Under the pieces are notes generated by a model that worked only from the letters and a program-made list of their open reading frames with translations, was not told the origin of the DNA and searched no databases. From IMG/VR virus record IMGVR_UViG_2537561977_000033: a DNA stretch of 45,340 bases, one strand, 5' to 3'. The stretch is from a virus. Taxonomy: Duplodnaviria > Heunggongvirae > Uroviricota > Caudoviricetes. Below, piece after piece: positions 2,304-40,585 of the stretch. Position 1 is the first letter of the stretch. Every line of letters starts with the position of its first letter. Made by a program: the position numbers and the translations under genes.

Positions 2304-2591
2304 TATAATAAACTTACTTTTTTATCATTTTTCCACTTTAACAACATTTTGCTCCACTTTTCCACGACCAAACAACTTGAAATCTGGTTAAAATAACACG
2401 CAACACTATTCTTCTTCCTTGAGTCCGCCCGGAACTCGAAAAACAAACCGAGTTAAAGCCATTTTTCACAAAATCGATTTTGGGTTTCACCAAAATTACG
2501 GGGTTGCATACGCATTCGTTTATTTTCGAACGTGTAGGTAATGCTGCCAACTTACTGATTTAGTGTATGATGGTGATTTTAAGGTGCTTGC

Positions 2592-2867
2592 GTGGCTTCC
2601 ATTTCCATCAGATGTCCTTCCTGCTCCGCTACTGAAGGCGTGGTGCGTAACGGCAAAAGCACTGCCGGACATCAGCGCTATCTCTGCTCTCATTGCCGTA
2701 AAACATGGCAACTACAGTTCACTTACACCGCCTCTCAGCCCGGTACGCACCAGAAAATCATTGATATGGCCATGAATGGCGTCGGATGTCGCGCCAGTGC
2801 ACGCATTATGGGCGTTGGCCTCAACACGGTTTTACGTCACTTAAAAAACTCAGGCCGCAGTCGGTAA
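2592..2867 (+). CDS. insA: IS1 InsA, 91 aa
   Basis: [43 protein letters not shown]... matches IS1 InsA from memory. Confidence 0.85.
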
Positions 2868-3289
2868 CCTCGCGCATACAACCGGGCAGTGATGTGATTG
2901 TCTGCGCTGAAATGGACGAACAGTGGGGCTACGTCGGTGCTAAATCACGTCAGCGCTGGCTGTTTTACGCGTATGACAGGATACGGAGGACGGTTGTGGC
3001 GCACGTCTTCGGTGAACGCACTCTGGCCACACTGGAGCGTCTTCTGAGCCTGCTGTCGGCCTTTGAGGTCGTGGTATGGATGACGGATGGCTGGCCGCTG
3101 TATGAATCACGCCTGAAGGGAAAGCTGCACGTTATCAGCAAGCGTTACACTCAGCGCATTGAGCGACATAATCTGAATCTGAGACAACATCTGGCAAGGC
3201 TGGGACGGAAGTCACTGTCGTTCTCAAAATCGGTGGAGCTGCATGACAAGGTCATCGGGCATTATCTGAACATAAAACACTATCAGTAA
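2786..3289 (+). CDS. insB: IS1 InsB reading frame, 167 aa (normally made as InsAB' by frameshifting)
   Basis: [16 protein letters not shown]...[13 protein letters not shown]... matches IS1 InsB; overlaps insA in another frame. Confidence 0.85.
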
Positions 3290-3395
3290 GTTGGAGTCAT
3301 TACCAACGTGTACATACAAATATGCACAAAAATAATCATAATTATTTTCTGAGATGCATTATGATATGAACACCAATTTCGTATAGAGTCTCACT

Positions 3396-3986
3396 ATGTC
3401 TCGAATTTTTGCTTACTGTCGGATATCAACGCTGGATCAGACCACCGAAAATCAACGCCGGGAAATCGAAAGTGCAGGTTTTAAAATCAAACCTCAGCAA
3501 ATAATCGAAGAACACATTAGCGGCTCAGCAGCAACCAGTGAGCGTCCTGGTTTTAACCGGTTGCTTGCTCGCCTGAAATGTGGTGATCAATTGATTGTGA
3601 CAAAACTGGATCGCCTTGGTTGTAATGCAATGGATATCAGGAAAACAGTGGAACAACTGACCGAAACAGGTATCAGAGTGCATTGCTTAGCATTGGGGGG
3701 CATTGACCTGACCAGTCCAACAGGAAAAATGATGATGCAAGTAATTTCAGCAGTCGCTGAATTTGAACGAGACCTTTTACTTGAACGCACTCATTCCGGG
3801 ATAGTAAGAGCCCGCGGCGCAGGGAAACGTTTTGGTCGACCACCTGTGTTAAATGAAGAACAGAAACAGGCGGTATTCGAACGAATTAAGTCAGGTGTAA
3901 GTATAAGTGCCATTGCCCGGGAATTCAAAACCTCGCGGCAAACCATTTTAAGAGCCAAAGCAAAACTTCAGACACCTGACATATAA
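3396..3986 (+). CDS. pin: Pin/Gin/Hin-family serine DNA invertase, 196 aa
   Basis: [20 protein letters not shown]... with the catalytic Ser in the YCRIS motif and a C-terminal HTH; matches Pin of E. coli cryptic prophages. Confidence 0.85.
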
Positions 3987-4082: not shown

Positions 4083-4658
4083 CTACGGCAGTGCTGGCCA
4101 TTCAATATCCTGTGCAGTTGACGTATCAACACGGTTCAGCAATACCCGATACTTTTTCCATGCTTCCAGCAACGAGATTTCTTCCTCCGTTGCAATTTCC
4201 AGATCTGCAGCATCCTGAAGCGGCGCAATATGCTCACTGGCTACCTGCATCAGGTTGTTTTTTGTTTCTTCCGCCTCCCGGATCCGGAACAGTTTTTCTG
4301 CTTCCGTATCCTTCACCCAGGCTGTGCCGTTCCACTTCTGAAACTCCCCTTCCGGCGATAACCAGGTAACATTTTCCGGTAACGGACCGAGTTCAGAAAT
4401 AAATAACGCGTCGCCGGAAGCCACGTCATAAACCGTTTTACCCCGATGATCTTCAACGAGATGCCACGATGACTCATCACTGTTGAAAACAGCCACGAAG
4501 CCAGCCGGAATATCTGGCGGTGCAATATCGGTACTGTTTGCTGGCAGACCTGTATGAGGCGGAATATATGCATCACCTTCACCAATAAATTCATTAGTTC
4601 CGGCCAGCAGATTATAAATTTTTATGGTCCGTGGTTGTTCACTCATTCTGAATGCCAT
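4083..4658 (-). CDS. tfa: tail fiber assembly protein, 191 aa
   Basis: Immediately downstream of the fiber gene with start/stop overlap at 4656-4660; sequence matches remembered TfaQ/lambda Tfa. Confidence 0.8.
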
Positions 4659-6313
4659 TATGCAAGCCTCACAATATAGTTAAATGCGATGTTTTTGACG
4701 GTGTTTTCCGCGTTACCAGCAGCGTTAACGGTGATGGTGTGTCCATGTGAACCAATCGCAACGGAGTGCGTATGAGCACCAATACCGACAGTATGTGCAT
4801 GTGCGCCTGCGCTTGCAGCAGTACCGGACAGCGAGTGGGTATGAGCACCATCTGATGATGTCTTCCCTGCATTACGAGTCTGGCCACTACCGCTTGTTGT
4901 GCTCATAATCCCCGCGCTTAGATTTGAAATCGCGGTATAACCATTAGGGAAAATGCTCGTGTTCGTGCCACCAAATGCACCGGAACTCTTGTGTTGGTGC
5001 GCACCGGCACTATTTGCGGTCCCGCTAATACTATGGGTATGCGCCCCGGTGTTATTCGTGGATTTGGTTCCGTAATCAAACGACGATGTGGTTTTCGTCC
5101 CCAAATCCGTACTGGATGCGCTGGCGCTGTGGGTGTGCGATTTAATGCCGTCCTGTTCCTGAGTTAATACGGCCCGACCACTGGCGGGCTTGCCCTTAAT
5201 CGTCCAGCCACGCATATCAGGGATCACGCCTGACGGATAAGCAACTGCAAGTTTCGGGTATGCAGATTTGTCAAAAGTCTGCCCCTGCATCAGGGCATAA
5301 CCAGACGGAACGGTATCTGATGGCCACGGGATTGGTGCACCGACTGGATAAAACTCTGCAGGAGGATGAGCCGAGGTGTAAAGCTGCGCCCACGGCGACC
5401 AGTTTGCGTCGGTCGTATCCCGTCGTGAACGAATAAATGCCGGAGCATGAGCACCGCTTGTACCACTCCAGCCGATGAGTAACTCACCTTCGCCAACGGC
5501 TGTCATCCCTTTCAGGTGAATGATATTTCCATACGCTGTTGGATATCCGTTGTTATACACCTCGTATAACTCAAGACCTGCTGCCCCCTGCGTATTGTCT
5601 GTCAGCGCGGTTACCCGACCTTTTGAAGCCAGATTAACTGATGATACTGCTGTTCCACCTGACGGTAACGCCCCGATCTCTGATGCCGTTGGCTTATTTC
5701 TGGAGTTATAGTCCCTTCGCCAGCCAGGTGAATAATCTGTTCCGTGATTAATATAGGTAAACTGGGCGTTAGTTGTTCCACCACCAGTGGAGGTGGTCGG
5801 TGTGGTAATGCGGATCGTCATCGCTGACTTTATCCCCATTACTTCAATGACAGCTCCGGCGAGATGAATATTACCGCAGTCAGTATCAGTAATGATTTTA
5901 TTATTGCCATAAGACCAGGACCCCTTGCACATCCAGTAGGGATGGTTAAATGCTCCCTGAGAATCCAGCCACTCGATAAACTGTGCAGTCGTCCAGTTTC
6001 CTGTTGTTGTGCTTACTGACCCACCGAAGGCACGGCAGGCACCAATATTTTTCGTAAAGGTATCTTTGCCAGGGATATCCGCACCGTTCTGATCTTTCTG
6101 CAGACGTTTCTCAGCATTGTCATTGGCTGCTTTTACTGCCTTTGGCGTTGCCGCCAGCGTTTCAGACGTGCTGTTGGTCGCGCTGCTTAACTGGATTATC
6201 CCTTTGTGCTGTCGTTGCATCCTGTGCGGTGTATTTCCCGTTAGCCAGGTCATACGCGGCCTTAACGGCTTTTGGCGTTGCCGCCTGTGACTCGGAAGTG
6301 CTGTTGGTCGCAC
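4658..6313 (-). CDS. stf: side tail fiber, C-terminal distal part; frame differs from the upstream stf part, real translation start unclear
   Basis: C-terminus ...[40 protein letters not shown] matches lambda Stf; carries the conserved box [26 protein letters not shown] near its N-terminus; first ~35 codons look like out-of-frame read-through. Confidence 0.7.
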
Positions 6314-6335
6314 TACTGAGCTGGACTATCCCCTT
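6141..6335. repeat. two direct copies (~64 bp each, ~130 bp apart) of the conserved tail-fiber recombination box
   Basis: 6141-6204 and 6271-6335 align with about 15 mismatches and one 1-nt length difference; both encode ...[11 protein letters not shown]...ATPKAVKAA in different frames. Confidence 0.8.
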
Positions 6336-7736
6336 TTTCGTCGTGCTCGCATCCTCAAGCGCCACGGCGGATGCAATATCCTCTGCCCGTTTTGCCGCTG
6401 TCTCGGCGCGCGTTGCCGCGGTTTCTGCCGTACTTTTGCTCTGTGCTGCCGCTGTCGCACTGCCAGCAGCCTCTGTCGCCTTCGTGGATGCTGTCGTGGC
6501 GCTGCCCTTCGCTGCTGACGCCTGTCTGGTCGCCTCATCTTTTGAAGCTGACGCCGATGATGCCGATGAAGCCGCCGAACTGGCGGACGATGCGGCAGCC
6601 GTTTTTGAGGATTCTGCGCTGGTTTCCGACGCTTTCGCGTTCGTCTCGGATGTCTTCGCTGCGGAAGCAGACCTCGCTGCTGCACTGGCCTGTTCAGTGG
6701 CTTCGCCAGCCTTCGTTGTGGCTGTTGAAGCAGACGAGGCGGCACTTTCTGCCGACTTTCCGGCAGCGGTGGCACTGGCTGAGGCCTGCCCGGCACTTGT
6801 TGACGCGGTACTGGCAGATGATGCAGCCGCTGTTTTTGAGCCTGCCGCAGCTGAGGCACTCTGTCCCGCTGCCGTTTCAGAAGACCTGGCGTTCGTCTCG
6901 GACGTCTTTGCCGCCTTCGCGGAATTTCCTGCCGCCGTTGCCGAGGAAGCGGCACTACTGGCGCTTGATGATGCGTTCGTTTCTGATGATTTCGCTGCCT
7001 CTTTTGAGGCCGCCGCATCCCGGGCTGAGGTGGCAGCTTCTGACGCCTTTGTGGTCGCTGCGGATGCAGAAGTGGCTGCAGATTTTTGTGACGCTGCCGC
7101 ATTCGTTTCTGACGTTTTCGCCGCACCGGCACTGGTAGCTGCCGCGCTTTTTGAGGACTCTGCAGCGGCAGCACTTTTTGATGCTTCAGTAGCCTTTGTT
7201 GATGCCGTTCCTGCGCTGGAAGACGCTGACTGAGCCGACGTCGCGGCCTGCCCGGCTGATGTGCTGGCTGCACGTGCTGAGCCTGCAGCATCAGTCGCAT
7301 GGGTTGCCGCCTCACGGGCTGATGTGCCGGCATCGCCGGCTGACTTCTTCGCGGCTGCCGTGTTCTGTGCCACCGCGGACGCGTTACGCGCCACCTCTTC
7401 CACCATCAGCTCAAAACGGCGCAGTGCCTCCGGACGGGCATCATCCTCCGTCATGGCACCGAGAAAATCATTCAGCGTACCGGGTCGGGAATCTTCATAC
7501 ACGGTGATGGTCCCGGCATGTGACGGCGGGAATCCTTCCACCAACAGAATAACGCTGTACTGACCGTACTCAACGTCCATACTGTAACGCCCGGCTTCAT
7601 CCGGATTTTCTGAGGCCAGCGTGTTCACCACCACCGTGGTGCTGTTACGTTTTGCTTTCAGCTGGATTGTGCAGTTCTGTACCGGTTTTCCTGTGCCGTC
7701 TTTCAGTACACCTGAAATCTTTACTGCCATATTCAC
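6162..7736 (-). CDS. stf: side tail fiber, N-terminal proximal part, 524 aa, Ala/Ser-rich repeats
   Basis: N-terminus [37 protein letters not shown]... matches lambda Stf; ends shortly after the conserved box, inside the second copy of the repeat. Confidence 0.75.
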
Positions 7737-7741
7737 CCCAC

Positions 7742-7768
7742 AAAAAAGCCCGCCTGAACCGGCGGGCT
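7742..7768 (-). terminator. rho-independent terminator downstream of lom
   Basis: On the minus strand GCCCGCCGGTTCAGGCGGGC followed by TTTTTT. Confidence 0.5.
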
Positions 7769-7794
7769 GTCATAACACTGTGTTACCTGGCTAA

Positions 7795-8394
7795 TCAGAA
7801 TTTATAACCGACACCCACGATGAAACTGTTGGTACGCCAGTCACCGCTGCCGGAGCCTTCATAAGCGACGTCAACGGCCACGGATTCGGTCGGGTTAAAC
7901 TGCACGCCAGCTCCCCACGCCAGAGACGTGTTGCTGTGGCGACCGTCATCACTTCCGGTCAGCACATCGTGCGTTTTCCCCTTGTTGTCAGTTACGCGGA
8001 TATAATCTCCGGAGAAAGTCGAAACACGGCTGTAAGCCATACCCGCCATCGCATACGCGCTGAACCATTCATTCACGCGCACAGACGGCCCCGCCATCAC
8101 GCTGAACCAGCGGTTACGCACGGAATCTTCATGCCAGCGGGTATCGCTGTAATGCGTTTTTTGCTCATCTTCAGCGTTGGCATAACTGAATGACGTAATC
8201 AGCCCCAGCGTGTCCGTAAACTCATAACGGTATTTCACGTTAATCCCGTTCAGATTATCGCTGCCGGGAGCGTTCGTACGGGCATGAAGATACCCTGCGC
8301 TCAGTGTGGCCTGCTGCTCAGACGCCCATGCAGGCGCACCGAATACGGCCAGACAAATGGCTGCGGACAAAATGGCGGCATAAAGTTTACGCAT
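7795..8394 (-). CDS. lom: Lom outer-membrane protein (Ail/Lom family), 199 aa, with signal peptide
   Basis: [24 protein letters not shown]... ends in a beta-barrel motif ...GVGYKF; lambda Lom position between J and stf. Confidence 0.8.
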
Positions 8395-8460: not shown

Positions 8461-11400
8461 TCAGCTGATACTGATGCCTGCGGTGGCTTTCTTCATCACC
8501 ACAACCAGCAAATCGCTGATACTTGCTGTGGGATACCAGTCATTTACCAGCCATGCTGACACCGAAAACTCCAGCGTCATGTGGCCGTGACCAGCTGGCA
8601 TATCAATAACACCACTGTAAATCAGCGTATTATCCAGCGCGGTACGGTTATAAATTTCAGCACCATTTTTCTTCACTATCAGGCGGCATGACGAATAAAT
8701 ATCGTTATTCTCCCGCTCATGTTTAGCGCCGCAGAATGCCACCGCTGGAATAACAATTTGCCTGTCAAAAGGCTGATCGTCATAAATCCTGACGGTAATG
8801 GTCCCTGATGGCCACCGCTCCGGTGCCCGGGAGTCCCGCGGGAAAGCCTTACCCACTGTTTTGACAATATCGCCTTCAATCTGATTGGCTGACAGTTTCC
8901 CCTTAATCTGACAGTTCTCATTAATCGTGACGTTGTTGAGCGTCCCGGAGTTCGCGTTCACGTTACCGCTGATATCGGCATTTTTCGCCGTCAGCCGTCC
9001 GCCAGGTGTCAGGGAAAATGCCGGAGGATTACCGCCGCTGGTAATGGTGGGGGCCGTCAGGCGTTTCAGGAACACGTCGTTCATGAATATCTGATCGCCC
9101 TGACCAACAAACATCGGTTTTGTGTTGCCATTCGCAGGATTAACCATCGCAATCCTGTCCGCCGCCAGCAGCACCTGACTCTGCATGCCGTCAGGGGTGT
9201 TCTCAATACCGGCACCAATACCCGCGATATAAAGGCGTCCGTCCTGCATCTGCTGCAGCTTCACAGCCCACATGCTGTTCAGGTTATTATTTGTATCAAC
9301 CTGAACCTTCTGTATCTGCTGAATTGCCGCACTCTGGTCTTCCAGTTTCTTATTGACGGTCTGCGTGATTTCATTGCTGACATCCGTAATGGACGTCCTG
9401 ATTTCAGCCAGGTCAGGCGCAAGCTGACCGTTATCAATCTGCGTCCACAGCTCCTGAGCCAGATGGGTTTTCCCTATCTCGCCTTTGAAAAAATCCAGAT
9501 AGCCGGATGCATCATCACTCGGCTGACCAACAGCCTCCACGAATGCCGATTTGCCAACGGTGTTCACACTGCGAACGTAAAAATAATAATCATGGCCCGG
9601 CCTGATATTGATACTGGCGGCTATCCAGTACAGCGCCGTGCCAAGATAGCGGGCTGTGGTTTCAACCTGCCTGATATCGGTAATCCGCTTTTCCGAGAAC
9701 CAGAACTCAAACTGTACCGTCGGGTCATAAACGGCAAGATGCGGCGTGGCGGTTATCTGAAAATAGCCCGGCGTCAGCTCAATCCGCGACGGCGCTGCCG
9801 GTGCGGCAATCCGGAACGATACCGACGCCGGATCGCCCTGCTGCCCCCACGCATTTACTGCCCGGACTGTCAGCCTGTAGTTCCCCAGCGCCAGTTGTGT
9901 GAAGCGGTAAGTGGTTTCCGTCGTCCGGGCCGTGCTGACCAGCCGCTCACTGCCGTCATCCGCTGTTACGGTCAGACGGAGCAGGAAGCTCACGCCCTTC
10001 ACCACCTTCGGCGTGTCCCAGCGCGCCAGCACCTGATATTCCCCGCTGTCTGCGGTGACTTCGGCAGTCAGGTGCTGCACCGCTGGCGGCGTGACACCAT
10101 TCACCGTGCCGCTCTGGTCGCCGTCAAAGTGCGCCCCGTTATCCACGATGGCCTCTTTTTCCGGTACATGCTGCACGGCGGTGATGGCATACGTGCCGTC
10201 ATCGTTCTCACGGATACTCACGCAGCGGAACAGGCGCTGGCGCAGCGTCGGCAGCTTCAGCCCCCATACGCTGTATCCGGCAACGCCGTCAGGAACACGG
10301 CTCACTTTTACCTTCACGCCGTCGGTGACGGACTGGACCTCCACGCTGACCGGATTGCCTCTTCCGTCAACCAGGCTTATCAGCGTGGTACCGGAGGATG
10401 GCAGCGTGATTTCACGGTCGAGCGTCAGCGTCCGGGTCTGGCTGTTCACCGCCAGCACGCGCCCGCCGGTACTGATACCGGCATAGTCATCATCGCAGAT
10501 TTCAATGACATCGCCCGGTACATGGCGAAGCCCTTCAGCACCCACGCTGAAGTCCACGGTCTGCGTTTCCAGCAGTTCCGTTTTAATCAGCCACAGCCCG
10601 GCGCGGTGTGCCTGCCCCCGGCTGGTACAGCCAAAGGCATCCATCTTCGTGACGTTACGACCGTAACGGGCAATGGCCTGCGTATCTTCAACAAGCTCTG
10701 TCGCCGTCTCCCAGCCGTTGTTCGGGTCAATCCAGTTCACCTCAACGGCATTATGGCGGTCCTTCAGGGCGCTGAAGCTGTAGCGGAACGGCGCGCCATC
10801 ATCCGGCATCACCACATTACTGCGGTTATAGGTCCACGCCTTATCCGACGGTCGGTCCTGCACGAACGTCAGCGTCTGCCCGTTCCATACCGGCATACAG
10901 CGCATCGCCGAGCAGAAATCACTGAGCACATCCCACGCCTTACGCTGTGTGGTCAGGTACGCATTACAGGTGATGCGCGGCTCCGTGCCGCCAAAGCCGT
11001 CCGGCACTGACTGGTCGCAGTACTGGCCGATGACATACAGCGCCCATTTATCCACATCCGTCGCACCAAGACGTTTCCCCATGCCGTAGCGCGGATGGGT
11101 CAGCATATCCCACAGACACCAGGCCATGTTGTTGCTGTATGCCGGTTTAAACGTTCCGTCCCAGATACCGCTGTATTGCCGCGTCTGCGGGTTATAGTTC
11201 GACGGCACCTGCAGAATGCGCCCGCGAAGATGATAATTACGACTCACCTGCTGGCTGCCGAACTGCTCCGAGTCCACCTGCACGCCGACCAGTGCCGTGT
11301 TCGGGTAGCCCTGTTTCACATCGATGATTTCGGTGTATGACGACCAGAGCGTTTTGTTCTGCAGCTGGTCTGTGGTGCTGTCCGGCGTCATCCTGCGCAT

Positions 11401-11940
11401 CCGGATACTGAACGGGCGCGGCGGCAGGTTATCCACCACCACAGAGGCCAGGTACTGCGAGGTGGTTTTGCCTTTAATGGTGATGTCTTTTTCCGTCACC
11501 CAGCCACCGTTACGTTGTATCTGAACCAGCAGGCGGACTTCCGATGGATTCCTGTCCCCCTTTGAGGTGGTTTCCACCAGTGCCTGCACACCGAAGGTAA
11601 AGCGCAGACGGTCGATGTTTGCAGACGTGATGGTCCGGGTGATCGGCGTGTCGTATTTCACTTCCGTACCGAGCACCGTCTCGGATCCGGAGGATTCAAA
11701 TCCCTCCGGCGGTGTCTGCTCCTGCTCACCGGCCCGGAACACCACCGTGACACCGGATATGTTGGTATTCCCCTCAGTGTCCAGCACCGGCGTACTGTTC
11801 AGCAGCACGCTTTTTAAGCCATCCACCGGACCTTCAACCGGCCCTTCGCTGATGGCATCGATCACACTCAGCAACTGCGTGGACTTCAGGTTGTCCTTCG
11901 CTTCGCGCGGGGTATGCCCCTTACTGCTGCCTTTACCCAT
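8461..11940 (-). CDS. J: tail tip / host specificity protein J, 1159 aa, with a C-terminal domain unlike lambda J
   Basis: First ~900 aa near-identical to remembered lambda J ([24 protein letters not shown]...); last ~250 aa diverge. Confidence 0.9.
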
Positions 11941-13317: not shown

Positions 13318-14015
13318 TTACTGCGAAAGTTTGTTAATGGAAAGGAAGCCGCCAAAGTTGCCGACGTTATTGCGGAACTTACAACCGCTCAGGCATTTGC
13401 TGCATTTATCCTTCGTGATATCGGACGTTGGCTGGTCATATTCATCCGCGACCGCCGGACCGTGATAACCGCACTCATCGCCGCGATAGGTCCAGGTGCA
13501 GGTGTTGGCCAGCATGATACGTCCCGGAAAAACAGCGCCATCCGTTTCCGTCGGCGTGGACAGTACAAAGGAGGCACTCACCGCGCTCAGTTCGCTGCAC
13601 TGCTCAATGCGCCAGCGGCTGATCACCTCCTGCTCCGGATCGGCATAACTGTTTCCGTTGACGAAGTTCACCGCATCCAGAAAACGGGCGTAAACCTTAC
13701 GCCGGACCACCGTTCCGCCGACCAGGCTCTGCATATCTTCCGCCATCCCGGTGACCATACCGTACAGGTTAGAAACCGTCAGCGTGGGGCGCGTACTGGT
13801 GCCTTTGCCATTCAGTTCAAAACCGCTCCCCTGAATGGGATACGGCTGATACTGTCGCCCCTGCCAGGTGACCGGCTCACCTTTTTCGTTCTGCTCATTA
13901 CAGAAAAATAACGTTCTCCACCGACCTCTGTCAGATCGATTTCCCAGAGCACCACGCTGGCCGACTGCTCCGCACGGGTGCATTCATTCAGTGTTTCCTG
14001 CCGGATATCCTGCAT
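13318..14015 (-). pseudogene. L: tail protein L with a -1 frameshift in a T-run
   Basis: N-terminal 37 aa (MQDIRQETLNECTRAEQSASVVLWEIDLTEVGGERYF) and the rest (FFCNEQNEKGEPVTWQ...KLSQ) sit in different frames; the junction is TATTTTTCTG on the coding strand, around 13904-13908. Confidence 0.75.
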
Positions 14016-15159: not shown

Positions 15160-16453
15160 CTGAGGAATCCCCAGAAAACAAGACAGGCATAGTGAGATGT
15201 GATCTAATTGATTGTGCTAACAATTTCAAGGAGATCACCACTATGCCTGCACGTTCATTATGCCAAAATTTCCTTAACAACATACTGGCCCCTTTGCATC
15301 TTTACCGTCAAAAATCACTGATTGACGCAACTAATGCTGTAATAAATGGCGCTTCCCTCACACTTACCAGTATCGGGCGTCATTTAACCGGTACGGCATC
15401 AGTTAAAAACAAAATAAAGCGGGTGGATCGACTGTTGGGGAATCGACATTTGCAAAATGAGGTTTCCACCATTTTTCAGCGAATTACCCAAAAGATTACG
15501 CGGGGAATGTCTCGTGTTGTGATACTCATTGACTGGAGTGCTTATCATGCCTCTCGTTTTCAGCTTTTGCGGGCAAGCCTGGCATGTGACGGGCGTTCTT
15601 TACCGTTGATGAGTTGTGTCGTTCCATCATCACAGACAGCGAATGCAGATGTACATGAGCGTTTTCTGGAATCGCTTGCTGAGTGCTTTTCCCCCGGGAC
15701 TGATGTCATTGTTATTACAGATGCCGGTTTTCAGGGGCGATGGTTCCAACAGCTCCGCTCCCGTGGCTGGACCTATATTTGCCGGGTACTGGGCAATCAT
15801 TATTACAATGTTGGTAATGGCTGGGAAAAGGTGTCGGACTCAGGCACAAAAGCATCAACGACAGCAATTTATTTAGGTGAAGGCCTGCTGGGTCGAGATA
15901 AAAATGCACAACATGAAGGGCATTTTTATCTTTATAAAAGTAAGCCTAAAGGTCGTAGATTTAAACGCTCGAAGGAAAGAGCAACCAGACCATCGGTGAC
16001 GGCTAAAGCTCGTACTGCCGGGAAATCACCATGGTTTATTTTCACAAACAGTACTGAGTTCTCGCCAAAACAGGTAATGAAATTATACAGCCGTAGAATG
16101 CAAATTGAGCAAAATTTCAGGGATGAAAAAAATCCTCGCTGGGGATTTGGACTACGGTTTGGTGCCAGTCATTCATCCGGGCGGGTCACGGTATTGAGTC
16201 TGATCGCAACATTAGCCAGTATCATTATGTGGTTAAGCGGTTTCAGCCTGGAAAACAAAGGGATACATCATAAATATCAGGCAAATACAGTGAAGCACAG
16301 GCGAGTCATCTCGTTATTAAAACTGGCGGAGAATGTGATTCGACATTCTCCACTCATACTAAACACACTGTCACTTGACGCAGGGCTGAAAGTTCTACAG
16401 CAACGGTATACCAATATGATAATGGTTTACTAAATTTTCTGGGGATCCCTCAG
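15160..16453 (+). mobile_element. IS4-family (IS10-like) insertion sequence, ~1.29 kb, no flanking direct repeat
   Basis: Terminal inverted repeats CTGAGGAATCCCCAGAAAA (15160-15178) and TTTTCTGGGGATCCCTCAG (16435-16453) resemble IS10 ends (CTGA.GATCCCC); flanking 9-mers differ (AGTCAGCCC vs GGCAAATCC). Confidence 0.8.
15192..16433 (+). CDS. IS4-family DDE transposase, 413 aa, IS10 transposase-like
   Basis: Motifs KRVDRLLGNRHLQNE, YKSKPKGRRFKRS, YSRRMQIEQNFRDEK and HKYQANTVKHRRV parallel remembered IS10 transposase; partial identity only. Confidence 0.85.
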   Translation: MRCDLIDCANNFKEITTMPARSLCQNFLNNILAPLHLYRQKSLIDATNAVINGASLTLTSIGRHLTGTASVKNKIKRVDRLLGNRHLQNEVSTIFQRITQKITRGMSRVVILIDWSAYHASRFQLLRASLACDGRSLPLMSCVVPSSQTANADVHERFLESLAECFSPGTDVIVITDAGFQGRWFQQLRSRGWTYICRVLGNHYYNVGNGWEKVSDSGTKASTTAIYLGEGLLGRDKNAQHEGHFYLYKSKPKGRRFKRSKERATRPSVTAKARTAGKSPWFIFTNSTEFSPKQVMKLYSRRMQIEQNFRDEKNPRWGFGLRFGASHSSGRVTVLSLIATLASIIMWLSGFSLENKGIHHKYQANTVKHRRVISLLKLAENVIRHSPLILNTLSLDAGLKVLQQRYTNMIMVY

Positions 16454-26340: not shown

Positions 26341-26656
26341 ACTACCACTGCTGGTTCAGAGTTAAAAAAACTATGATTTTTTCATGATGTTACCGTAGTA
26401 TGTGAGTATCCATCGAATAGACACCAAGCAAAAAAGCTCCCGAAGGAGCCTTCATTTTCACTTTTTTAAATCCAACGACAGACGGCTGGCATTTAAGTAT
26501 TGTGAAATATTATCAAATGTAATCATCATTGATTTACAAAAGATACATTTTGCCCCGAAAGGATTCATGTCAGAAACATCAAAAGATGATGTTCTATACT
26601 GGGAACCATGACAACACGGGCATCTAAAGTGAATATGGTTTGTAATATTGTCTACC

Positions 26657-26869
26657 TCAAAGCGCCACTACATGAACAGCGGCAGGACCTTTAGGTCCGT
26701 TCTCAATACCAAATTCAACTTCCTGATTCTCAGTTAATGTTTTGAAATCGTTGCTCTGAATTGCTGAGAAATGGACAAACACATCTTTGCTGCCATCTTT
26801 CGGCGTGATGAAACCAAAACCTTTTTCAGGGTTAAACCATTTCACTAAACCAGTCATTTTGTTAGACAT
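26657..26869 (-). CDS. cspI: cold-shock protein (CspA family), 70 aa
   Basis: [38 protein letters not shown]... with RNP1/RNP2 motifs; matches my memory of CspI. Confidence 0.8.
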
Positions 26870-27230
26870 AATTATTACCTTTTGAAGAAATTAGCCCTTG
26901 GGCAGAATGGTCCGAAAAAAATATCAGAGAGAAAAACCAACAAGGAAATCTCAAGAGGTACAAATAATAAAATTATAACAATGACTGCTTCAGATAAATT
27001 TGTAACAAACCAGAACACCATTAACGCATGATTAACCACCCATAGCAAGGATTACTTTTGTAAAGAAAAACACAGCAATGAAAGAATAGCTTTATTTATT
27101 AATAAAACGTGTCATTCTGATTAAGACCTTTTATCTTACCCTTAAGATTTCAGGAATTTTGGCTCATGGAAGAGTCCTTTTTATTCAAATTTTACATTCC
27201 GCGATGTAAATGTTCCGATTTAATATTACC

Positions 27231-29175: not shown

Positions 29176-29537
29176 TTGATTTTATTAGTAACAAGTATTT
29201 TTATATTTTAATAATATATTTAAAGCAGATAATAAAAAACCCGCCTGAGCGGGTTTGAGATTGTGGTGCTTTTTGTGGGAGTCATCCACTTACGCACTTT
29301 GTTTTGCCATGCCAGCAGTTAGCTTCTGCTGTAAAACTATTCATGCAGCAAACCTGCACTTCACCACAATGGTTAGCATACTTTTCCTGATTAAGATTTT
29401 GCCAAATATGCTAGCCATTGTTTCATGTATTGGACCTCCTTACTTTTTATTAAAGAGATCCAATATTCACTACTCTGTCCGTATCTCTACTCAGGCATCA
29501 GCCTTCTTCGTTATCGTATACAGACGAGCGATGAATT

Positions 29538-29753
29538 TTAATCAGTAATGATGACATTTGCTGCTGCAGGACCTTTAGCACCACTCTCTATAGAGAAGGT
29601 AACCTTTTGACCTTCAAATAAGGTTCGATAATTATCATTCTGAATCGCAGAAAAATGCACAAACACATCTTTACTACCATCAACAGGAGAAATAAAGCCG
29701 AAACCTTTATCAGCGTTAAACCATTTTACTAAACCAGTCATTTTATTTGACAT
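29538..29753 (-). CDS. cspB: cold-shock protein (CspA family), 71 aa
   Basis: [51 protein letters not shown]... matches my memory of CspB. Confidence 0.8.
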
Positions 29754-30052
29754 TCTACATTCCTTAACTTGAGCCTTTCGGCATAAATGGTTTGCATAAC
29801 AGAAACGACTTCGTACTTAATTGGAGAGACTCAAAGAAGGAATAAGTGAATAACACCTGAAATGAGAACTGCTTTAGTAAACTACTTCGTATATCGTCTG
29901 TTCTTCAAACCGACGCAATCATTAACGCATAGTTGAACATATGAAGCAATGTTTATTTTAGACATCCAGCCGTCTTCAACCCCATCAAAAACTATAGCTT
30001 TCTTCAGGAACGTGTGTATAGTGCGCCAAGTTATCAGTATTAAGGAATTTTT

Positions 30053-40532: not shown

Positions 40533-40585
40533 TTTCTGGTGACGTTTGGCGGTATCAGTTTTACTCCGTGACTGCTCTGCCGCCC
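40533..40585 (+). ncRNA. dicF: DicF small regulatory RNA (ftsZ-targeting), ~53 nt, followed by a T-run
   Basis: TTTCTGGTGACGTTTGGCGGTATCAGTTTTACTCCGTGACTGCTCTGCCGCCC matches the DicF sequence as I remember it; between the ydfB/C region and dicB. Confidence 0.8.

Follow-up and report, generated by a model that had tools for sequence, protein, structure and literature searches.

The stf locus of the LT-68 prophage

The window, i.e., the whole 45,340-nt stretch of DNA analyzed here, belongs to a draft contig of Escherichia coli LT-68 (ADUP01000059.1; 2011 draft assembly), where a lambda-like prophage sits at the Qin (ydfJ) site. The fiber region of this prophage comprises the following genes and reading frames:

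3396..3986, plus strand: pin-type serine invertase of 196 aa, convergent with tfa; PF00239 (Resolvase) and PF02796 (HTH_7)
4083..4658, minus strand: tfa, tail fiber assembly chaperone, intact, 191 aa; PF02413 (Caudo_TAP), E 3.6e-43
4658..6325, minus strand: distal part of stf, in the +1 frame with respect to the proximal part, open from 6325
6162..7730, minus strand: stf proximal reading frame, 522 aa from ATG 7730 (start in the ORF list, GTG 7736)
7795..8394, minus strand: lom, 199 aa, annotated Ail/Lom in relatives
8461..11940, minus strand: J, 1159 aa, located by tblastn with lambda J

Domain content and gene order identify the gene between J-lom and tfa as a lambda Stf-type side tail fiber gene, in agreement with the first-pass annotation, which had described a side tail fiber gene lying in two reading frames. 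The proximal ORF carries the prophage tail fiber N-terminal domain (PF08400) at residues 3-136 (E 2.8e-72), and alignment with lambda stf revealed homology in both halves: 87% identity to orf-401 over 285 N-terminal aa, and 69% identity of the distal frame to orf-314 residues 70-314 (C-terminal 230 aa). The distal frame encodes a Phage_fiber_2 box (copy 2, below), a Collar domain, His-rich repeats and the C-terminal region (PF03406, PF07484, PF03335). The order J-lom-stf-tfa is that of the lambda late operon and is annotated likewise in relatives. A comparison with NCBIfam yielded no family for either fiber half. In the LT-68 annotation, a 551-aa version of the distal half is recorded as "long tail fiber protein p37" (EFZ55477.1), and a spurious antisense ORF is placed over the proximal half of stf.

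Two Phage_fiber_2 boxes are read in different frames

The two frames meet at an 87-nt direct repeat, whose copies are 78% identical and start 130 nt apart (3 × 43 + 1):

6249..6335, minus strand: box copy 1 (Phage_fiber_2 repeat); PF03406 positions 1-42 of 42, E 6.9e-22, 77.2 bits
6119..6205, minus strand: box copy 2 (Phage_fiber_2 repeat); PF03406 positions 4-41 of 42, E 1.2e-19, 70 bits

The repeat is far above chance, because each box alone is a significant match to PF03406 (a 42-position profile with a gathering score of 22 bits, which both exceed). Copy 1 is read in the proximal frame and copy 2 in the distal one. The duplicated box, its spacing of about 130 bp, not divisible by 3, and the termination of the proximal ORF within copy 2 were thus described correctly at first pass. 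The product of this ORF consists of 505 native residues (...DATTAQ) followed by a 17-aa out-of-frame tail, and ends at TGA 6164-6162. Candidate starts in the distal frame are GTG 6313, ATG 6253 and ATG 6220. A continuous frame for the whole fiber is not present in the window, given the break at 6204-6206 and the stop at 6164-6162; as it stands, stf is a pseudogene. The additional statement that no single-base change fuses the frames proved wrong, as 163 single-base deletions between 6328 and 6164 each generate a 1023-codon ORF; single-base insertions alone fail to do so.

The pin-type gene, annotated pinQ in a relative, is separated from tfa by 97 nt. We found neither a gix/hix-like core (AAACCNNGGTTT) nor relevant inverted repeats resembling crossover sites near the fiber genes. 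An invertase-driven switch of the Mu Gin, P1 Cin or e14 Pin type was discarded as the source of the duplicated box, since no crossover sites came to light and there is no alternative fiber/tfa cassette.

Intact relatives carry both boxes and two additional nucleotides

Intact alleles with two boxes occur in E. coli 55989 (WP_001387657.1), E. coli 600029 (WP_213181684.1) and phage mEp460_ev081 (VUF53340.1). The encoded proteins are 1024 aa long in the two strains and 1023 aa in the phage, each with two PF03406 stretches. These alleles are collinear with the window across the whole 3.07-kb gene, at 98-99% nucleotide identity for the two E. coli alleles and ∼93% for mEp460_ev081, with lom upstream and tfa downstream. 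A pin-type recombinase follows in two of the three records (600029 and mEp460_ev081), as in the window. Unlike the window, they carry an extra AG, space their boxes 132 rather than 130 nt apart, and encode one continuous protein. The two-box arrangement is accordingly the normal, intact state of the gene.

The difference maps to a single site:

6204..6206, minus strand: 2-nt deletion site; intact alleles GCACAGAAAGGG, window GCACAAAGGG

The window reads CAACGACAGCACAAAGGGATAATCCAG across this gap, and the lost dinucleotide is either AG or GA, as the alignment with intact alleles is ambiguous. It is the sole indel over 3,073 nt in the comparison of the window with the three intact alleles, and positions 6645..5505 (1,140 nt) are identical to strain 600029 except for these 2 nt. 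Putting AG back restores a 1024-aa protein that differs by 6 residues from the 55989 allele and by 13 from the 600029 allele. Among the matches listed from complete E. coli genomes, 40 of 40 relatives are 2 nt longer over the box stretch, including all 31 listed records with at least 99% identity. The first-pass annotation was therefore right that the true difference amounts to 2 nt. It was equally right to dismiss a homopolymer slip: the nucleotides were lost outside any run, and no homopolymer changed in length. Within the second 44-aa repeat unit, the gap falls in the linker ahead of box copy 2. The frame shifts 18 codons past box 1, and the gap creates an in-frame rare AGG codon exactly at the junction (CAA-AGG-G).

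Searches for the deleted form retrieved no second instance. A 40-nt pattern of the junction had no matches in GTDB representative genomes, a 27-nt pattern had none in JGI metagenome contigs, and megablast against 5,426 complete E. coli genomes yielded no 100% match. A collection of 15 billion proteins does not include the exact product of the proximal ORF, whichever of the two starts is taken, and the distal ORF protein forms a cluster of one member. The out-of-frame tail was covered by no protein match among 5.8 billion clusters, which is weak evidence given that only short fragments were returned. Within the collections searched, the deletion is private to the LT-68 draft contig.

The box marks mosaic boundaries, but the deletion does not coincide with them

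The duplicated box and the split gene had initially been interpreted as a scar of recombination at a hotspot of fiber shuffling. The box itself is a real mosaic boundary in the population: across E. coli alleles, the end-points of homology gather at the 3′ end of each of the two boxes (query 289-292 and 432-438). K-12 StfR (1120 aa), encoded in the Rac prophage (StfR, tfaR, pinR) with the same stf-tfa-pin order, is a further case: over its N-terminal 522 residues it is 88% identical to the restored protein (residues 1-566), but it has a single hybrid box (KKGIVQ...) and thus one 44-aa unit fewer than the window allele. The left flank of this hybrid matches copy 1 and its right flank matches copy 2. 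The central part of StfR also differs and includes a Gp34_trimer domain, and its reading frame is intact. Lambda likewise has one box.

The split in LT-68, however, does not coincide with this boundary. That the duplication and the frame break both arose from unequal or illegitimate exchange at this conserved box is contradicted by several observations. Two boxes at 132-nt spacing are the ancestral state, intact in many genomes and in one phage record. Hundreds of nucleotides on each side of the gap are identical to intact alleles, and the nearest relative (600029) and level of identity are the same throughout. The gap (query ∼346) falls in the linker, which is divergent, rather than in the core that the boxes share, and is outside every cluster of homology end-points. 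Since the 1,140 nt around the gap match one intact allele at every other position, there is no recombination junction. We regard such an exchange as very improbable; this split is a plain small deletion in the linker.

A real mutation or a consensus error

The same prophage contains other lesions. An IS4-family element lies between residue 81 of Z and residue 581 of H; U, V, G and T are absent, and gene L is frameshifted by a T6-to-T5 change. With this gene content, the prophage is already defective apart from the stf lesion and cannot build tails. Counting the stf deletion, its non-functional tail module carries at least three lesions.

A second explanation is that LT-68 has an unbroken stf (1024 aa) and that the 2-nt gap reflects a consensus error of the draft, in a region repeated among the prophages of this genome. 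The frameshift in L affects a T6 homopolymer, a classic error context. Very many 220- to 330-nt contigs in NCBI drafts carry the Phage_fiber_2 box, which evidently confuses assemblers, and relatives hold 2 to 4 matching places per genome. On the other hand, a 2-nt loss outside a homopolymer does not resemble a typical pyrosequencing error, because no homopolymer length is changed, and a 279.7-kb contig passes unbroken through the region. Nine head genes as well as M, K, I and J give full-length matches to lambda (83-99% amino acid identity), so indels are not widespread in the assembly. Further mutations are moreover expected to accumulate in a prophage already killed by the IS-associated deletion. 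We therefore infer that the deletion is probably a real mutation, and consider a consensus error the less likely origin, albeit one to be taken seriously: as the deletion is known from one draft contig of 2011 only, separating the two needs the sequencing reads.

Predicted consequences for the side fiber

The explanation that we find most plausible, with some reservation, is that a genuine 2-nt deletion broke stf in a prophage that was already dead, and that no side fiber is made. According to this proposal, AG or GA was lost at 6204-6206, in the linker that leads into the second native Phage_fiber_2 repeat. Translation begun at the stf start codon would then shift after residue 505, add 17 wrong residues and stop in copy 2. 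The truncated product would retain the collar domain at the N terminus, a shaft rich in Ala and Ser, and a single box; box copy 2, Collar domain, His-rich distal shaft and receptor-binding tip would all be missing. For its expression, the distal frame lacks a promoter-like site and could draw only on a fortuitous internal start, and any distal product would lack the N-terminal domain anchoring the fiber to the tail. With the tip lost from the proximal half and the anchor from the distal half, both half-fibers would be unusable, and therefore no side fiber could be made.

The split might alternatively be tolerated or even used, by low-level +1 frameshifting at CAA-AGG-G or by separate translation of the distal part from ATG 6253. 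In E. coli, ribosomes can be induced to shift by +1 at rare AGG codons, tandem AGG-AGG being the best documented case. Here, +1 is the direction needed, the deletion itself made the in-frame rare AGG (Arg) codon at the junction, and frameshifting would yield a full-length fiber minus one Lys. Nevertheless, inspection of 6325-6162 uncovered no known +1 slippery motif but a single rare AGG, the tRNA-Gln decoding CAA re-pairs poorly on AAA, and CAA-AGG-G has no CUU/CCC-type P-site codon, no tandem rare codon and no SD-like stimulator at the right distance upstream. Nor is the two-frame state conserved: all 40 listed relatives have the 2-nt longer form, and the three alleles analyzed in detail are single-frame. 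Programmed frameshifting was rejected on these two grounds, the missing motif and the missing conservation. As for separate translation, a weak Shine-Dalgarno-like AAGG lies 6 nt before ATG 6253, but we found no sigma-70-like promoter site in 5900-7900, and designed independent expression of the distal part was discarded with this AAGG as its only signal. The distal piece would also be without the PF08400 collar domain that anchors the fiber (PMC12617516), and the prophage cannot build tails in any case. Tolerance or use of the split is thus extremely improbable, and we assign close to negligible probability to an actual product, be it a near-full-length Stf minus one lysine that a few ribosomes would make via CAA-[A]-GGG, rendering the fiber allele leaky instead of null, or a distal half acting alone from ATG 6253.

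Parallel with laboratory lambda

A broken stf has its closest precedent in lambda PaPa. Hendrix and Duda reportedly described in 1992 the frameshift that distinguishes lambda PaPa stf (orf-401/orf-314) from Ur-lambda stf. This frameshift is also described in PMC12617516 and PMC2762979. In Ur-lambda, the N-terminal domain of Stf is a collar that fixes the fibers at the gpV/gpM junction, and the frameshift abolished the side fibers of laboratory lambda (PMC12617516). Frameshifts were likewise the commonest stf-inactivating mutations in lambda experiments, accounting for 15 of 19 mutated stf isolates (PMC2762979).

In LT-68, as in lambda PaPa, a small indel splits the fiber gene into N-terminal and C-terminal ORFs, and at a similar position: the orf-401 frame ends 9 codons past the PF03406 box of lambda, compared with a shift 18 codons past box 1 in the window. 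The two cases differ in the number of boxes, one in lambda and two in the window allele, and in the lesion itself, which from the lambda sequence looks like one nucleotide missing from a run of C; in the window, 2 nt outside any run are missing. Furthermore, lambda PaPa is otherwise viable, unlike the LT-68 prophage with its missing tail genes (all of U, V, G and T, and the greater part of Z and H) and frameshifted L. The outcome expected of the lesion, loss of the side fibers, is nonetheless that of laboratory lambda.

On its own, the finding matters little, being another frameshifted prophage fiber gene with a textbook precedent in lambda PaPa. The locus is better annotated as one stf pseudogene than as a "long tail fiber protein p37" plus an antisense ORF. 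In draft genomes, private indels in the box region need read-level confirmation, since this region forms a mosaic boundary at the population level and is also hazardous to assemble. Tandem Phage_fiber_2 boxes in fiber genes are to be read as native domain repeats, which by themselves are no evidence of a recombination scar.

The split fiber gene and its surroundings

The end of a lambdoid late operon lies on the minus strand of the window, running from J through lom and two fiber ORFs to tfa:

11940..8461, minus strand: J (1159 aa)
8394..7795, minus strand: lom
7736/7730..6162, minus strand: stf proximal fiber ORF, overlapping the distal ORF
6313..4658, minus strand: stf distal fiber ORF (551 aa; frame open from 6325)
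4658..4083, minus strand: tfa
3396..3986, plus strand: pin-type serine invertase, directly convergent with tfa
2534-3307: IS1 (inverted repeats 2534-2559 and 3282-3307; transposase ORF 2786-3289)

Beyond the invertase lie IS1 and then the host gene ydfJ. The proximal ORF has the prophage tail fiber N-terminal domain (PF08400) at its N terminus, and the distal ORF contains the Collar domain (PF07484) and His-rich fiber repeats. Once the frame is restored, the identity of the protein to lambda orf-401 is 87% across the first 285 residues and that to lambda orf-314 is 69% across the last 230, which identifies the gene by homology as the lambda side tail fiber gene stf.

A strong terminator-like hairpin (7747-7768, minus strand; 8-bp stem with 7 GC pairs, followed by a T run) separates lom from the stf start and is presumably read through under late antitermination. 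The invertase gene is an orphan lying across a 97-nt gap from tfa; neither an alternative fiber cassette nor recognizable crossover sites were found beside it, and phage mEp460_ev081 and K-12 Rac show the same arrangement of orphan pin and tfa. The IS1 copy is located between the ydfK/ynaE side and pin, and the top complete-genome matches to its flank reach only 98.5%.

A 2-nt deletion between native boxes

A repeat search of the window revealed a direct repeat of 87 nt whose copies, 6249-6335 (box copy 1) and 6119-6205 (copy 2), are 78% identical and spaced by 130 nt. Each copy alone is matched by PF03406, "Phage tail fibre repeat", with 77 and 70 bits, respectively (cutoff, 22 bits). By translation, copy 1 is in the proximal frame, which then reaches a stop at 6164-6162, inside copy 2, while copy 2 is read in the distal frame, open from 6325 and at +1 with respect to the proximal one. 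Repeat search and translation thus bear out the anatomy described in the first-pass annotation.

Megablast with 5950-6550 as the query matched 3,828 of 5,426 complete E. coli genomes. The matched stretch was 2 nt longer than the query in all 40 matches listed, including the 31 listed records at ≥99% identity, with full-length matches of 603 versus 601 nt. In E. coli relatives stf is annotated as a single 1024-aa protein, and phage mEp460_ev081 carries the same gene (1023 aa) with two PF03406 stretches. Alignment places the missing AG (or GA) at 6204-6206, where the sequence of intact alleles is GCACAGAAAGGG, against GCACAAAGGG in the window. This gap is the only indel across the whole 3,073-nt gene in comparison with three intact alleles (E. 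coli 55989 and 600029, and mEp460_ev081), and from 6645 to 5505 it is also the sole difference from strain 600029. Reinsertion of AG yields a 1024-aa protein differing by 6 residues from the 55989 allele. The native state is thus a pair of boxes spaced by 132 nt (44 codons), and the break in stf is a simple loss of 2 nt from the second 44-aa repeat unit, within its linker part (QDATTAQ/KGIIQ).

The earlier claims of a 2-nt difference, and of something other than a homopolymer slip, are right. The accompanying claim that no single-base change restores the frame is wrong: the box spacing of 130 nt equals 3 × 43 + 1, so that removal of one base also restores it. In silico, the ORF becomes continuous with any of 163 different single-base deletions between 6328 and 6164, but with none of the single-base insertions.

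Past recombination at the box

The first-pass annotation explained the split as a recombination scar at the duplicated box. The box is a place of past fiber-gene recombination, because homology ends in the E. coli matches listed from best to worst cluster at query positions 289-292 and 432-438 (the 3′ ends of copies 1 and 2), the only box of K-12 StfR is a hybrid, with one 44-aa unit fewer, and lambda has one box. The hybrid box of StfR fits, as expected, unequal crossing-over between two boxes, or duplication in the opposite direction. When residues ∼465-510 of K-12 Rac stfR are compared with 6119-6335, the left flank resembles copy 1, and the right flank, AEKRLQKDQ, is similar to what follows copy 2.

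The clustered homology ends and the StfR hybrid would also suit a box exchange that produced the split, but the deletion lies at query position ∼346, away from these clusters, and the identity pattern is unchanged across it, making such an origin very unlikely. The fiber split, the 2-nt difference, and the recombinational role of the box therefore stand, whereas the scar mechanism falls, with the lesion off the homology boundary and the duplication native. Duplication as a by-product of the deletion was likewise rejected, given the two-box state of intact alleles. All 48 stf substitutions relative to strain 600029 fall within 7637-6645, and most of those relative to 55989 within 5261-4718; this clustering points to a mosaic pattern, with past exchanges elsewhere in stf and not at the deletion.

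Expected products

The truncated product would consist of 505 native residues plus 17 others. In Ur-lambda, the Stf N-terminal domain makes a dodecameric collar around the gpV/gpM junction (PMC12617516); the truncated product would retain this collar-forming domain without the distal shaft and the receptor-binding tip. No promoter-like site was found for the distal frame, and it has just a fortuitous start, ATG 6253 with AAGG 6 nt upstream; any distal-frame product would lack the anchoring domain. The expected phenotype is absence of side fibers, as in laboratory lambda, whose stf is split by a frameshift into orf-401 and orf-314 (PMC12617516; PMC2762979). Frameshift was also the commonest route of stf loss in experimental evolution of lambda (15 of 19 mutated isolates; PMC2762979). 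The lambda orf-401 frame ends 9 codons past the single box, where the sequence reads as a C run one base short, presumably relative to Ur-lambda. Leaky or programmed +1 frameshifting could be envisaged at CAA-AGG-G, which the deletion newly creates with a rare codon exactly at the junction, but neither a supporting motif nor conservation accompanies this site, and we regard such recoding as extremely improbable.

Other lesions and cargo of the prophage

Comparison of lambda proteins with the window by tblastn showed that nu1, A, W, B, C, D, E, FI, and FII are intact, with 97 to 99% identity to lambda. M, K, I, and J are intact too. Z ends at residue 81 (window 16453; residues 1-81 remain), H retains residues 581-853 (starting at window 15162), and U, V, G, and T were not found in the window; the prophage is therefore unable to build a tail tube. 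An IS4-family element (15163-16452; transposase ORF 15192-16433, plus strand) lies between the Z and H stumps. Gene L (minus strand) is split across two frames near residue 37, at about 13904-13910. The site reads CGTTATTTTTCTG, with a five-T run; one more T would restore lambda RYFFCNE, and the stretch is 1 nt longer in all eight E. coli relatives among the matches listed. Genuine decay and a sequencing error in the homopolymer are both possible explanations of this frameshift. With the Z-H gap and its IS4-family element, together with the L split, the tail module is nonfunctional whatever the state of stf; counting the fiber frameshift, the prophage has at least three lesions.

Four Rfam matches, all above the gathering score, are typical Qin-type prophage cargo:

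4117-4315, minus strand: IS009 candidate sRNA, inside tfa
26630-27014, minus strand: cspA-type thermoregulator leader
29522-29914, minus strand: cspA-type thermoregulator leader
40534-40585, plus strand: DicF sRNA

Real mutation or consensus error

The distal ORF (551 aa) is identical, residue for residue, to EFZ55477.1 of E. coli LT-68, the sole member of its 90% cluster among ∼15 billion proteins. Contig ADUP01000059.1 (GCA_000188815.2; 279.7 kb) shares 9,656 nt with the window at 100% identity. The deleted junction was found neither in GTDB representatives nor in JGI metagenomes, 5950-6550 had no match at 100% in the 5,426 complete E. coli genomes, and a protein database search found no protein with the out-of-frame tail. 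In the LT-68 annotation as deposited, the distal half of stf is the only half called; the place of the proximal ORF is taken by a 245-aa antisense ORF (6496-7233, plus strand), almost certainly not a real gene. The Ala/Ser-rich shaft region is open in several frames, other long ORFs over stf being antisense (6142-7233 and 6371-7138) or in the third frame (6326-7333, minus strand).

A real mutation is the probable source of the 2-nt gap: the change is not in homopolymer length, the contig is a long one, the window has fourteen further lambda-like structural genes that are full-length and intact, and decay is expected in a dead prophage. A consensus error is the less favored but still plausible alternative, in view of a gap that is private to one draft from 2011, the neighboring gene L frameshift in a T run, and a box that is a multicopy repeat fragmenting assemblies. 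Among protein database matches, dozens of "tail fiber protein, partial" clusters come from 220- to 330-nt contigs holding hardly more than the Phage_fiber_2 box, which seems to be a common breakpoint of short-read assemblies; a few short box contigs are labeled Staphylococcus, Pseudomonas, or Acinetobacter, probably through contamination. Collectively, these results describe a frameshifted pseudogene of stf, or else an assembly error mimicking one, in a defective lambda-like prophage, a type of lesion already known and ordinary whether real or an error.
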